A stretch of 64,000 nucleotides of DNA, from the NCBI GenBank assembly GCA_903855135.1, contig CAINYB010000001.1:2740-66739 (forward strand). Direction: 5' to 3'. The position numbers and the translations under genes are program-made. This document shows positions 2,981 through 36,536 of this stretch, in pieces (the stretch's first letter is position 1; each line of letters starts with the position of its first letter). This DNA comes from an uncultured bacterium. GTDB taxonomy: Bacteria > Patescibacteriota > Patescibacteriia > UBA1558 > GWA2-36-10. The notes under the pieces are model-generated. The model did no database searches, had not been told where the DNA came from, and saw only the letters and a list, made by a program, of their open reading frames with translations.

Positions 2981-3056
2981 TACCCCCTCTGCCACTTCCG
3001 CCGAAGGCGGAAGCTGTCTTCTCCCCCTAAATTAGGGGGAGACCGAGAGGGGGTAC
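2981..3056. repeat. GC-rich three-way-junction palindromic element, subfamily A (outer stem taccccctct/agagggggta enclosing two hairpins, one of them ctccccctaaattagggggag)
   Basis: Seen directly in the sequence. A near reverse-complement copy lies at 36457-36536. Confidence 0.7.
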
Positions 3057-3081
3057 TTTAAAAAGAGTAATTATAAAAATT

Positions 3082-4359
3082 TTAAAAACCTTCGTAGTCA
3101 CGCATCACTAATTGAGCGTCAATTTGTTTAACAGTTTCGATCACCACCGCCACGACGATCAAGATAGAAGTGCCACCTAAAGAAATAGTCTGAATGCCAG
3201 TCAATGGTCCAATAATGATCGGTAAAACAGCTACTAGACCTAAAAACAAAGCCCCAGCAGAAATAATACGCACCATGACTTTATTTAAATACTCGGCTGT
3301 GTGTGTACCTGGTCTAATACCTGGAATAAAACCACCTTGTTTTTGTAAATTTTCTGCAATTTGTTGAGGATGAAAAATAATAGAAGTATAAAAATAGGTA
3401 AAGCCAACTACGGCTGCAAAATAGATAATACCGTAAAATAATTGATTCTTAAAGACAGTGATAATCCATTGAGAAAAATGTACTAACCAACTAGCATCAG
3501 AATTTAAGAAAAACTGAGCAATGGTTGGTGGCACAATGACAATGGAAATAGCAAAGATAATAGGAATAACACCAGCTTGATTGACACGCAAAGGTAAATG
3601 AGTGCTGACGCCACCAGCATTTCTTTGACCCACCATATGACGAGCGTAAGACACAGGAATATTACGTTGACCCTCAGTGATAATGACGATGGTGACGATA
3701 GTCACTAAGGCAATCAAAGTAAAGATGACAAAATTTAAAATCTGTGAGCTATCAAAAGCAATCAAAGTATTACCAAATGATTGTGGTAAGCTGGCTACGA
3801 TACCAGCAAAAATGATCAAAGAAATACCATTGCCGATTTTTTTCTCAGTGATTAACTCACCTAACCACATCAAAAACATACTACCAGCCACAATCATCAA
3901 TAAAGCTAAAAATACCTCAGCACTGGACATGGAGCCTAGCAAAGCACCATTAGTTTTTTGAGACAAGAGCTTGATAAAACCATAGCCCTGGATAAAAGCC
4001 AAAGGTACTGTCAATAATCTAGTATATTGGTTTAATTTTTGTTGACCATACTCGCCTTCTTTTTGCAAAGCTTCAAGCTTTGGCACGATCATAGCCAATA
4101 ATTGGAAAATAATCGAAGCCGTGATATAAGGACTGACACCTAACATCACTACAGAAAAATTCTGTAAACCACCACCAGAAAATAAATTTACCAGACCCAA
4201 AACATCATTAGCACCAAATAAACTCTTGAGGCTACTAGTGTCAACGCCAGGGATAGGGATATGAGCAGCAATTCTAAATACAATCAATAAGGCCAAAACA
4301 TAAAAGATGTTGTTACGGATCTCTTTAGCTTTCCAAATTTGTTGTAATTTTTTTAACAT
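3082..4359 (-). CDS. secY: preprotein translocase SecY
   Basis: 425 aa with 10 TM helices and SecY motifs. Confidence 0.9.
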   Translation of the reverse strand: MLKKLQQIWKAKEIRNNIFYVLALLIVFRIAAHIPIPGVDTSSLKSLFGANDVLGLVNLFSGGGLQNFSVVMLGVSPYITASIIFQLLAMIVPKLEALQKEGEYGQQKLNQYTRLLTVPLAFIQGYGFIKLLSQKTNGALLGSMSSAEVFLALLMIVAGSMFLMWLGELITEKKIGNGISLIIFAGIVASLPQSFGNTLIAFDSSQILNFVIFTLIALVTIVTIVIITEGQRNIPVSYARHMVGQRNAGGVSTHLPLRVNQAGVIPIIFAISIVIVPPTIAQFFLNSDASWLVHFSQWIITVFKNQLFYGIIYFAAVVGFTYFYTSIIFHPQQIAENLQKQGGFIPGIRPGTHTAEYLNKVMVRIISAGALFLGLVAVLPIIIGPLTGIQTISLGGTSILIVVAVVIETVKQIDAQLVMRDYEGF

Positions 4360-4388
4360 TTTATTTATATCGCCCGGTGGGCGAATTG

Positions 4389-4865
4389 TTATTTTTTCTC
4401 AATTTTTTCCACTGGTCTTAAGGCAATGACAATAACTTTACCACCAGCAGTTTCAATCGCTTTTTTAGCACTTTCAGAAAAAGCATGCGCTTCTACGGTC
4501 AATTTTTTGGTCAAAGAACCAGCAGATAAGATCTTTACGCCATTATCCAAAGATTGCACTAAACCTTTTTTAATCAAGGTGCGCAAATTTACTAATTGAC
4601 CATCATTAAATTGGCTTTGTAGGTCTTTCAAATTGACGATAGCCATTTTAGCAGTCAAAGATCTAAAACCACGGGTTTTTGGAATACCCAATAAATAGCT
4701 TTTCATGCTACGAGCAGTCAAACCTGATTTACCACCAGAACGAGCTTTTTGACCTTTTAAACCACGAGTGGAATAAGTACCGCGTCCAGAAGCGTTACCA
4801 CGACCAACTCTTTTCTTGGCTTTATTAACACCTGGCTTTGTTTGAAGATTGTGCAAAGACAACAT
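4389..4865 (-). CDS. rplO: 50S ribosomal protein L15
   Basis: GRGNASGRGTYSTRG motif. It lies only 11 nt from rpsE, so no L30 gene intervenes. Confidence 0.9.
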   Translation of the reverse strand: MLSLHNLQTKPGVNKAKKRVGRGNASGRGTYSTRGLKGQKARSGGKSGLTARSMKSYLLGIPKTRGFRSLTAKMAIVNLKDLQSQFNDGQLVNLRTLIKKGLVQSLDNGVKILSAGSLTKKLTVEAHAFSESAKKAIETAGGKVIVIALRPVEKIEKK

Positions 4866-35691: not shown

Positions 35692-35819
35692 AAAATTTTG
35701 ATTAAATAAATTTTCTTACCTGTAAGCCCGCTTCGCGGGCTTATCACTAGAAATTTTTAAATTGTTAGCTATAATACCTCAGAGGAAACCCCGCCCAAGG
35801 CGGGGTTTCCTCTGCTTTT

Positions 35820-36167
35820 TCAATGCAATGGATATGGAGATGTTCGTAGTCTCGGATCATAAGAAAAAATCCTTTGATCATTACGCGCAATCATTACACG
35901 CTGACGATTATGGTCAAAAGTGACACTGTCTACTGAATGAGATACCCAAGTATCATCAACATAAATCAACAGATCCCCCATTTGTCCATTGATACCACAT
36001 AGCAAACGACCCTCTCCAAAACCCCATTCTTGATTAGGATCGTAAATAGCATCAAAATGACTTAAAAAATCAGCAAGAGTTCTCTGGCGGGCTAAAATTT
36101 GATTGTTATGGACCAAAAGAGACAGTAGGCCAAGGCCTAAGGCTGGGAAAAACTCGCGACGATTCAT
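35820..36167 (-). CDS. small exported protein with twin-arginine (Tat-type) signal peptide MNRREFFPALGLGLLSLL; GC-richer than its surroundings
   Basis: A GAGAGG Shine-Dalgarno lies 6 nt before the internal ATG, so the track ORF TTG start (36209) is probably upstream of the true start. Confidence 0.45.
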   Translation of the reverse strand: MNRREFFPALGLGLLSLLVHNNQILARQRTLADFLSHFDAIYDPNQEWGFGEGRLLCGINGQMGDLLIYVDDTWVSHSVDSVTFDHNRQRVMIARNDQRIFSYDPRLRTSPYPLH

Positions 36168-36456
36168 GATAGACCTCTCTATGTTTGCATTGTTGTTGGC
36201 AAAGAACAAAAAATCTCCTATATTCTAGGAGACAACGAGTAAGTCTATTATCTTTTGACTTTGATGATAACAAGCTCACTCCTTCTCTCCTTAGGAAAAA
36301 GAATAAACGACTTCGGGTATCTGACTTTCCGTCAAATGACGGATTACAGTAGCTAGGACTGTGGAGGCTTTACACCTCACTTCCCCGACTAAATTTTTAA
36401 TTTTCTACGGCTTCCAAACTTTAGCACAAGATTTTAGACTTGGCAAGTTTAAAAAG

Positions 36457-36536
36457 TACCCCCTCTCAGTCTCCCCCTAAATTAGGGGGAGAAGGCACGT
36501 TCCCTGGCGGATGCCGGGGAAGCGACAGAGGGGGTA
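36457..36536. repeat. subfamily-A three-way-junction palindromic element (reverse orientation relative to 2981-3056)
   Basis: taccccctctcagtctccccctaaattagggggag...agagggggta. Confidence 0.7.

Follow-up and report, generated by a model that had tools for sequence, protein, structure and literature searches.

The window analysed here, a 64-kb stretch of one Patescibacteria genome, carries a family of G+C-rich palindromic elements in its intergenic DNA, and the unit from which these elements are built is tightly coupled physically to genes of the DUF559 putative nuclease family. The unit is not lineage-specific but forms a superfamily across bacterial phyla, of which the BoxC repeats of Escherichia coli are, by their architecture, one form, and the elements are polymorphic at the strain level. 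The best reading of the elements is that of DNA-level dispersed palindromic repeats, not of a dedicated RNA gene. From the combined analysis we lean towards a partnership in which the DUF559 nuclease would act on the unit and the solo elements would be its non-autonomous relatives. All statements on element density in this genome apply to the 64 kb of the window.

The repeat unit and its coupling to DUF559 genes

Each unit (~35–45 nt) consists of a C-rich arm, (T/A)ACCCC(C)TCT, followed by 2–5 nt or a small hairpin and then by a C-run/G-run hairpin. The small hairpin, h, reads GTCC-N4-GGAC, the main hairpin, H, reads CTCCCCC-loop-GGGGGAG, and the C-rich arm repeats the 5' half of the H stem; in reverse complement H comes first and the G-arm follows. 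Two units facing each other in inverted orientation make up the palindromes of 76–107 nt. Nine units are distributed over six sites in the window, none of them within 36.5–64 kb, and the 23-nt core TCTCCCCCT-N5-AGGGGGAGA has six matches in the window at up to three mismatches versus none in 100 dinucleotide-preserving shuffles.

The association with DUF559 was examined in the reverse direction at 80 metagenome loci, picked solely for encoding a relative of the window DUF559 protein (41–55% identical). When hairpins were counted as C-run/G-run pairs with a stem of at least 6 and a loop of 3–11, their density over the 100 nt on either side of the DUF559 gene reached 7.6 per kb upstream and 6.3 per kb downstream, versus 0 within the gene (26 kb) and 0.08–0.13 per kb at more than 500 nt from it (229 kb, including many other gene ends), an enrichment of about 70-fold within 100 nt of the gene. 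A hairpin was present within 150 nt upstream at 55 of 75 loci, downstream at 46 of 74, and on both sides at 34 of 69. The modal layout in gene orientation is hairpin, G-arm, gene, C-arm, hairpin, and full elements on both sides and direct arrangements were also found. The G-arm often ends 4–16 nt ahead of the DUF559 start codon, and at one locus (L083) the halves of a doublet stand on either side of the gene. Doublets on DUF559 contigs take the forms cH-spacer-Hg and Hg-spacer-cH, and solo units on such a contig match the gene-flanking units of the same contig. Four loci that were negative in the C-run scan (L134, L135, L183, and L193) have BoxC-type units, CCTCACCC-N-CCCTCTCC-loop-GGAGAGGG, beside DUF559; the density of these units is 0.20 per kb close to DUF559 versus 0.004 per kb at a distance. 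The coupling is seen in unrelated lineages, including Patescibacteria, Bacteroidales, many metagenome contigs, and E. coli K-12.

A covariance model was built from 48 units of the metagenome DUF559 flanks, with no window sequence in the training set, and the whole window was searched with filters off. Six full-length matches were obtained (E 6.1e-8 to 3.1e-6), together with one further match (E 0.004) at the half of element B3 that holds a nested hairpin (Table 1) and partial matches at remaining hairpins. The window contains no further copies: its other G+C-rich hairpins are ordinary CCCCGC-N4-GCGGGG-type terminators, at which the model gave nothing better than E 0.5. As judged by this model, the window elements appear to belong to the DUF559-associated family of arm plus hairpin.

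The conservation of the hairpin was assessed in a register-free pairing test on 132 distinct C-run...G-run motifs from DUF559 flanks, in which complementarity was required solely in the runs. C-run and G-run were of equal length in 111 of the 132 motifs, the −2/+2 positions outside the runs formed 68 Watson–Crick pairs versus 36 ± 5 in shuffles (maximum 54 of 1,000), and the second position inside the runs formed 114 versus 60 ± 5. Because the run lengths are equal and both the flanking and the inner positions pair above the shuffles, hairpin potential is maintained by compensatory changes, a check that had been proposed in an earlier note made from the letters of the window. The non-Watson–Crick positions show no excess of G:T (G:U) over A:C, which, together with the occurrence of both orientations relative to transcription, is weak evidence that fits a DNA-level or either-strand constraint better than a sense-RNA one. 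In a MAFFT alignment of the units, 79.7% of cells were paired and 31 double changes were counted versus 22.7 ± 4.5, pair counts that are weakly informative because of register errors; it is the register-free test on which we rely.

Distribution across phyla and the BoxC repeats of E. coli

The hairpin alone, CTCCCCCT-N5-AGGGGGAG, was scanned in one genome per species (185,579 species genomes). Among the matches listed were >120 loci in many phyla, including Saccharibacteria and other Patescibacteria, Proteobacteria, Bacteroidota, Planctomycetota, Cyanobacteria, Poribacteria, Abditibacterium, and others. Among the same matches, the hairpin was accompanied at 111 of 132 distinct sites by a C-run in the 20 nt before it, a G-run in the 20 nt after it, or both (43 cH, 47 Hg, and 21 both), as against 7 and 12 in the wrong-polarity controls. 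The arm is centred 4–13 nt ahead of the stem, and the small GTCC..GGAC hairpin is seen again in Abditibacterium, Bacteroidales, and others. Arms of at least 7 nt were found at 31% of the cross-phylum sites versus 19% in shuffles; because most cross-phylum matches are single units lacking a second arm, outer-stem covariation across phyla carries no usable signal. The genes flanking the solo units among the matches listed are unrelated housekeeping genes, and 42 small open reading frames (ORFs) beside solo units fell into 38 unrelated Pfam families, with DUF559 once and no transposase family among the 42. At the hairpin-selected loci, the ORFs between an H-g unit and the next c-H unit, where an alternative partner gene was sought, are ordinary genes.

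The DUF559 protein of E. coli is YcjD. The last four codons and the stop of ycjD lie within a BoxC-like hairpin, CACCCTCTCCCTGAAAGAGCGAGGGGG, and the ycjD-fabI spacer contains GGTCCCCTCGCCCCTCTGGGGAGAGGGTTAGGGTGAGGGG, the reverse complement of 'eco:9_BoxC', about 150 nt downstream of ycjD. BoxC is said to have been first described, by Bergler and co-workers in 1992, upstream of envM/fabI. In E. coli K-12 (NC_000913.3, 1351040–1351406; L214), the same spacer has a degenerate second copy of the final ~60 nt of ycjD, followed by eco:9. Among 5,426 complete E. coli genomes, the BoxC family occupies a median of 19 places per genome (range 2–35), and ycjD is present in 3,378 (62%) as a single-copy gene with a median of 1 place per genome. 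A solo BoxC-family copy lies between zntA and tusA. A clean empty ycjD site was not found in E. coli, where strains lacking ycjD have efflux genes after sapF.

BoxC repeats of E. coli are 50–56 bp long and occur in 22–32 copies (PMC2267715), and 22 published sequences served as the reference set (PMC2267715, Additional file 1). Their architecture is like that of the window unit, with an arm CCCCTCACCC, a 3-nt linker TAA, and a C-run/G-run hairpin CCCTCTCCCC-N3-GGGGCGAGGG, and BoxC copies are extragenic and dispersed, as the window elements are within their 64 kb. In unrelated metagenome contigs, namely the four loci named above, DUF559 is flanked by BoxC-type units of intermediate form whose arm, CCTCACCCTAACCCTCTCC, is nearly that of BoxC. 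The stems differ, CTCCCCC/GGGGGAG in the window versus CCCTCTCCCC/GGGGCGAGGG in BoxC, and the window units share only the architecture and the C and G runs; moreover, BoxC is mostly a single unit, whereas the window copies are doublets or arm-closed units with an extra small hairpin. In 19 of the 22 BoxC copies (GGGCGAGGG vs CCCTCTCCC), a common stem position is non-Watson–Crick, with T opposite C (G opposite A on the other strand). Such a mismatch is curious given that the repeat adjoins the gene for a protein related to a mismatch endonuclease; in the window, the hairpins are perfectly paired.

Strain polymorphism and signs of movement

Copies in related genomes, which the earlier note had advised looking for, occur in some relatives at the secY-adk boundary. 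L212 has only a plain terminator there (CCTCCGCC-TATT-CGGCGGGG, then a T-run). L211, which shares an identical SecY with L212 (93% to the window), differs from it by an A element between flanks that otherwise agree. The A element is present in L209 and L210 as well (98% to the window), and L213 (an 81% relative) has a plain terminator. In the window, the copy stands in the opposite orientation to those of L209–L211. Look-ups by EF-Tu and S10 returned no strain variants of the window loci beyond the same arrangement.

The fusA-tuf interval of the window contains an element with DUF559 and three genes, together with another B element in direct orientation, and the same interval in relatives with 96%, 86%, and 85% EF-G identity has other small genes, with no units and no DUF559. 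This interval (window 15240–19877; L220, L221, and L222) is a variable hotspot with different gene content in each relative examined; a 126-aa PhdYefM-like ORF lies directly upstream of tuf in L220 and L222, and an ORF of the same size lies on the opposite strand in L221.

Within the window, the pieces 18982–19028 and 19439–19496 rebuild one B1-like element (91% and 89% identity), and between them lie DUF559, an arm, and a second, identical 23-nt H. Because the flanking pieces rebuild one element, the DUF559 cassette sits within a split B element whose H is duplicated. In L127 (3768–4499) and L145 (205–806), the 5' end of a host gene (MADSxIAxKD...) contains a cassette of unit plus DUF559, and the start of the host gene is duplicated on both sides of the cassette over 118 nt and 44 nt, respectively, at 92–93% identity, as if the cassette carried a replacement gene start. 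The DUF559 genes of these two loci have nearly identical 3' halves and divergent 5' halves. An independent assembly of the window population (L206) breaks inside H of B2, its position 1 corresponding to about 19421 of the window, the behaviour expected of a multi-copy repeat.

The DUF559 protein

The window DUF559 protein matches Pfam PF04480 (E 1.7e-32, 111.9 bits vs a cut-off of 20.6) and the structure of a Neisseria gonorrhoeae DUF559 protein (PDB 3HRL, E 4.5e-16), and on these comparisons it is assigned to the Vsr/EDxHD-type PD-(D/E)XK nuclease family. DUF559 has been classed with Vsr and the homing endonuclease I-Bth0305I (PMC3424549, PMC3384342). Residues D54, E65, D67, G68, H71, D80, R83, and R96 are 99–100% conserved over 82 relatives, and internal stops occur in only 2 of 80 DUF559 genes; because the catalytic-type residues are invariant and internal stops so rare, the nuclease looks active. 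The family is represented by 24,200 relatives (50%-identity level) that match the window protein at E ≤0.001, and it is rare on viral contigs, with 12 relatives among 2.9 million.

The half copy of the repeat supplies the last 18 codons and the stop of the window gene. The earlier note had recognized this repeat-derived ending and had put it at 17 codons. The tail so encoded is missing from 98% of the 82 aligned relatives, and many other DUF559 ORFs have N- or C-terminal extensions that are translated units (LPLSKGE, SPPYQGG, PPLGKGR, SPPNKGGD; cf. the window tail ...FSPPYEGGDVRED).

Two further loci show unusual arrangements of the gene. In a Bacteroidales metagenome-assembled genome (L028, 2558–3976, minus strand), a tandem unit array and DUF559 lie in one open frame inside folK (HPPK), at the position of catalytic loop 3; the resulting ORF has 472 aa, and the insertion resembles the in-frame insertions of Rickettsia palindromic elements. 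P0241 (377 aa) has three tandem DUF559 domains in a single ORF, which suggests tandem gene arrays or read-through across inter-gene units.

Interpretation and rival explanations

In the partnership that we lean towards, DUF559 would recognise the unit and nick or cut at or beside it; the hairpins would then undergo repair or recombination, by which units, and now and then the gene as well, would be copied into the G+C-rich, terminator-like sites that separate operons. The nuclease gene with its flanking units would then be the gene-carrying form and the solo elements its non-autonomous relatives, in parallel with repetitive extragenic palindromic (REP) sequences or REP doublets forming hairpins (REPINs) and the gene for their REP-associated tyrosine transposase (RAYT), or with the solo targets of a homing endonuclease. 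Once settled, elements may be tolerated because they replace or serve as transcription terminators and insulators; secondary use as terminators is plausible since the transcribed strand of three copies ends in a T-run. A stronger version of the proposal is more tentative, and we regard it as possible though on balance doubtful: DUF559 (YcjD) would be the dedicated nuclease of a bacteria-wide, RAYT-independent repeat system, recognising the unit and driving its copying, inversion, and loss, and the solo elements at the ends of operons, from Patescibacteria through to E. coli, would be its non-autonomous progeny, co-opted as terminators.

Several observations weigh against the partnership. The association by itself carries no direction, and the gene could simply have homed into, or been retained beside, repeats that were already there. 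The 2,048 of 5,426 E. coli genomes without ycjD-like DNA all have BoxC, so that the repeats persist without the gene, and DUF559 lies near only 2 of 120 hairpin-selected loci. Within the window, the A subfamily has no DUF559 gene. The orientation of units around the gene is variable, and the relation of hairpin type to DUF559 protein similarity is weak (46.0% vs 44.8% identity, 21 of 2,000 permutations as extreme). On BoxC copies the unit model gives 12.7–14.4 bits and only E 0.04–0.1, at full length and in the right place. At secY-adk the element replaces a terminator with no clean target-site duplication, and three relatives have one element each in about 21 kb, all at secY-adk, and two others have only plain terminators. 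Vsr itself is a T:G mismatch-repair nickase and not a mobility enzyme.

The relation may also run the other way, with the gene depending on the repeats and not the reverse: the repeats would spread or persist by other means, and DUF559 would be a selfish free-standing homing-endonuclease gene for which the unit is the site of both recognition and insertion. The split element in the window, with a 23-nt H on both sides of the gene, speaks for such insertion, as do the gene between doublet halves in L083, the replacement 5' end of the interrupted host gene in the L127/L145 cassette, the ubiquity of BoxC in E. coli genomes of which only 62% have ycjD, and the presence of a proven homing endonuclease in the Vsr/EDxHD clade (I-Bth0305I, PMC3384342). 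However, the modal layout is not that of a single split unit, and the model gives no account of near-identical units reaching many phyla and sites. A single-copy ycjD and one window gene for nine units also fit poorly with an actively homing gene that has many free targets, and we hold this model to be unlikely. It is improbable, in turn, that the elements are host modules working at the RNA level, as compound terminators, insulators, or mRNA-stabilising 3' structures, and that DUF559 adjoins them because mobile small genes bring or need strong terminators. It is true that every window copy stands at the 3' end of a minus-strand gene, ahead of the next promoter-like site, that a T-run follows the G-arm on the transcribed strand at the secY, prfB, and nrdR copies, that relatives have a plain terminator at the equivalent secY-adk position, that hairpin pairing is kept by compensatory changes, and that a G-arm 4–16 nt ahead of the DUF559 start, as in many loci, could serve as a ribosome-binding site. 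Yet conservation of the stem sequence across phyla far exceeds the needs of pairing, the remaining gene ends within the 229 kb flanking the DUF559 loci are almost always free of units, and on the transcribed strand the B copies at 15881 and 19403 have no T-run; copies lie in either direction with respect to transcription (A1 vs A2, and the window copy vs the L211 copy), and neither a G:U excess over A:C nor an Rfam match was found.

Much the same observations bear on a structured non-coding RNA gene family with a three-way junction and a function of its own, which the earlier note had raised and which the analysis does not favour. At the gathering threshold the adenosylcobalamin (AdoCbl) riboswitch is the sole Rfam match in the window, with none on the repeats, and relaxing the cut-off to E 10 added only miRNA-like chance matches on the palindrome. 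The fold is strongly non-random (z −4.5 to −9.3), the A copies form a three-way junction, and helix potential is conserved, but half units, tandem arrays, doublets of either relative orientation, and copies read in frame within ORFs are hard to reconcile with an RNA gene, orientation relative to flanking promoters is not conserved, and the outer stem is invariant among the A copies, hence without covariation support; this reading is highly improbable. The chance is just as slight that the elements are classical miniature inverted-repeat transposable elements (MITEs) or REPs, that is, non-autonomous insertion-sequence derivatives that rely for their movement on a DDE or HUH (RAYT) transposase encoded at another place in the genome. 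Small size, intergenic position, strain polymorphism, and terminal inverted arms, (T/A)ACCCC(C)TCT ... AGAGGGGGT(A/T), are as expected of such elements, and CTTTAAAAA stands on both sides of A1. This sequence is probably part of the element because it also adjoins A2 within the A1/A2 inverted homology, and neither the B copies nor A2 are flanked by direct repeats. The target-site-duplication check that the earlier note had advised thus gave nothing consistent across the window copies and lends its MITE-like reading no support. In addition, the units carry no GTAG or CGTC tag, which defines the REP superfamilies (PMC3733652), the 42 small ORFs beside solo units include no transposase family, and the gene repeatedly bracketed by units is DUF559 and not a transposase. 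The comparison with REPs or bacterial interspersed mosaic elements (BIMEs), also made in the earlier note, nevertheless pointed to the right kind of object: inverted doublets of a small hairpin unit, placed between transcription units, with strain-variable presence and orientation. CRISPR arrays were likewise considered and rejected, as they had been in that note, since the copies are spaced unevenly, run in either orientation, and show no spacer structure.

The DUF559 family is very large and has no assigned role, and for BoxC no function or partner gene was found in the literature located. The two puzzles become one hypothesis that is approachable in the model organism E. coli. If true, it would give a function both to DUF559 and to BoxC, and it would add to REPIN/RAYT a second, mechanistically different arrangement of a repeat plus a domesticated nuclease, with an unusually wide phylogenetic reach. 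In practical terms, units inflate ORF calls (tails such as SPPYEGG and LPLSKGE on many database proteins), they can occur in frame inside genes, and at least one assembly contig (L206) starts within one.

Elements and neighbouring features of the window

The coordinates of the elements are given in Table 1. The sequences at the six positions listed in the earlier note read as claimed there, apart from the half copy, which begins one base earlier than the 18983–19027 given. The A layout is arm-H-h-arm', a three-way junction, and the two A copies are mutually inverted, which bears out the statement that both orientations occur; the B layout is arm-(h)-H-spacer-H'-arm', and the B copies are imperfect palindromes because the loop TTACGAA is the reverse complement of TTCGTAA. 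The terminal inverted repeats are TACCCCCTCT/AGAGGGGGTA in A and AACCCC(C)TCT/GGGAGGGGTT in B. Single-strand folding of the copies gave the z scores quoted above relative to shuffles, with a three-way junction predicted for both A copies and a long palindrome or a branched form for the B copies. The G+C content of more than 60% reported earlier is likewise reached by the two A copies (62%) and not by the B copies (52–57%); that of the whole window is 35.7%.

Table 1. Repeat elements and the DUF559 gene in the window, with matches to the unit covariance model (strand in brackets).
Feature	Position	Strand	Length and G+C	Parts	Location	Unit-model match
A1	2981..3056		76 nt, 62% GC	C-arm 2981–2990 TACCCCCTCT; variable h 2993–3015; conserved H 3020–3042 TCTCCCCCTAAATTAGGGGGAGA; G-arm 3046–3055 AGAGGGGGTA	between secY stop (3082) and adk promoter region	3019–3063 (−), E 9.7e-7
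B1	15881..15982		102 nt	C-arm 15881–15890; small hairpin GTCCTTGCGGAC 15891–15902; H 15904–15926; spacer; inverted H' 15948–15972; G-arm 15973–15982	between histidine-kinase gene stop (16035) and PhdYefM-like ORF start (15819)	15947–15991 (−), E 6.1e-8
DUF559 gene	18974..19381	−	135 aa	domain aa 13–117; repeat-encoded tail aa 118–135		
Half copy (left half of B element)	18982..19028			C-arm; small hairpin GTCCTCACGGAC; H 19005–19027		
B2	19403..19494		92 nt	C-arm 19403–19412; H 19416–19438; spacer; H' 19460–19484; G-arm 19485–19494	directly upstream of DUF559 start	19395–19439 (+), E 2.8e-7; 19459–19503 (−), E 3.6e-7
B3	31769..31875		107 nt	C-arm; H 31782–31804; spacer; H' with nested CCCCGCGAAAGCGGGG hairpin 31829–31864; G-arm 31866–31875	between prfB stop (31880) and terminator of convergent ORF 31372–31701	31761–31805 (+), E 3.1e-6; 31829–31884 (−), E 0.004
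A2	36457..36536		80 nt, 62% GC	C-arm 36457–36466; H 36470–36492; variable hairpin 36497–36524; G-arm 36527–36536; inverted relative to A1	2 nt past nrdR stop (36539); upstream of next operon's promoter and AdoCbl riboswitch	36449–36493 (+), E 9e-7

The half copy is 91% identical to the left half of B1, and H of B2 is identical to the 23-mer at 19005–19027. The B copies do not share one pair of hairpins, as had been supposed: the second hairpin of B3 deviates, with the CCCCGCGAAAGCGGGG hairpin inside the loop of CCTCCCCTT/AAGGGGAGG. Of the placements proposed earlier, those at the adk/secY boundary and downstream of nrdR stand, and the one upstream of prfB is reversed; B3 lies just beyond the stop codon of prfB on the minus strand and is hence downstream of it. 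The spurious 94-aa ORF noted before (15767–16051, plus strand) overlaps the whole of B1 and has no Pfam match.

The genes of the window are nearly all on the minus strand, and Pfam confirmed adk, secY, tuf, the PhdYefM-like ORF, the histidine kinase, DUF4395, class-V aminotransferase, DUF559, fusA, prfB, nrdR, and ftsZ; no tRNA or tmRNA was found in the window. The AdoCbl (B12) riboswitch (36272–36402, minus strand) scores 53.8 bits against a gathering score of 50 and precedes a 129-aa ORF (35820–36209; no Pfam match) and a 590-aa prenyltransferase/DUF4430-like protein. A2 separates nrdR from the promoter-like site of this riboswitch. Two paralogous genes, at 24109–24479 and 31353–31702 (116 and 109 aa), are rare plus-strand genes in a minus-strand region; they are coiled-coil-like, have no solid Pfam match, and are 87–90% identical in DNA including their upstream regions, and the second adjoins B3. 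A 300-nt direct repeat (49124–49423 and 50785–51084; 72% identity, 1.66 kb apart) is probably paralogous coding sequence.

Comparison with known systems

Among described repeat families, a match to which would have counted against the reading of the earlier note, E. coli BoxC shares the architecture, and no Rfam family matches. A literature search of incomplete coverage found no paper tying DUF559 or YcjD to BoxC or any other repeat.

The resemblance to intrinsic terminators lies in G+C-rich stems at the 3' ends of genes, in the T-run that ends three copies, and in the alternation of terminator and element at one locus in near-identical strains. In contrast to terminators, the elements are branched or compound, conserve their stem sequence, and occur in both orientations, and a simple terminator pattern scan does not call them. 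MITEs (Correia/NEMIS, Nezha, and ERIC) and Rickettsia palindromic elements are, like the window family, small palindromic non-coding repeats that fold when transcribed and occasionally read through into ORFs, as do the window DUF559 tail and the folK array of L028. The present family differs from them in showing no consistent target-site duplication and no transposase among the 42 small ORFs beside solo units, and in its spread across phyla.

The enzyme has its own relatives for comparison. I-Bth0305I differs from it in its location in a group I intron and its extra DNA-binding region. The window protein shares the invariant D...ExDGxxH...D residues with the DUF559/Vsr clade. To our knowledge, no Vsr/EDxHD member is known to act on repeats of such a kind.

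The closest parallel is the REP/BIME/REPIN-RAYT system, which likewise combines a short hairpin unit with an adjacent conserved single-stranded motif (PMC3116915, PMC5581495, PMC3733652), inverted doublets, extragenic sites at operon ends, strain-variable copy number, and a single associated nuclease-type gene bracketed by units. The partner is a predicted PD-(D/E)XK Vsr-like protein here and a Y1 HUH transposase in RAYT, the GTAG/CGTC tag of REPs is absent from the units, and, while REPs are for the most part specific to a species, the unit keeps a similar sequence from phylum to phylum. The kind of repeat is thus already known from BoxC and REP-like elements, and what appears to be new is the putative Vsr-family nuclease partner and the unusually wide distribution.

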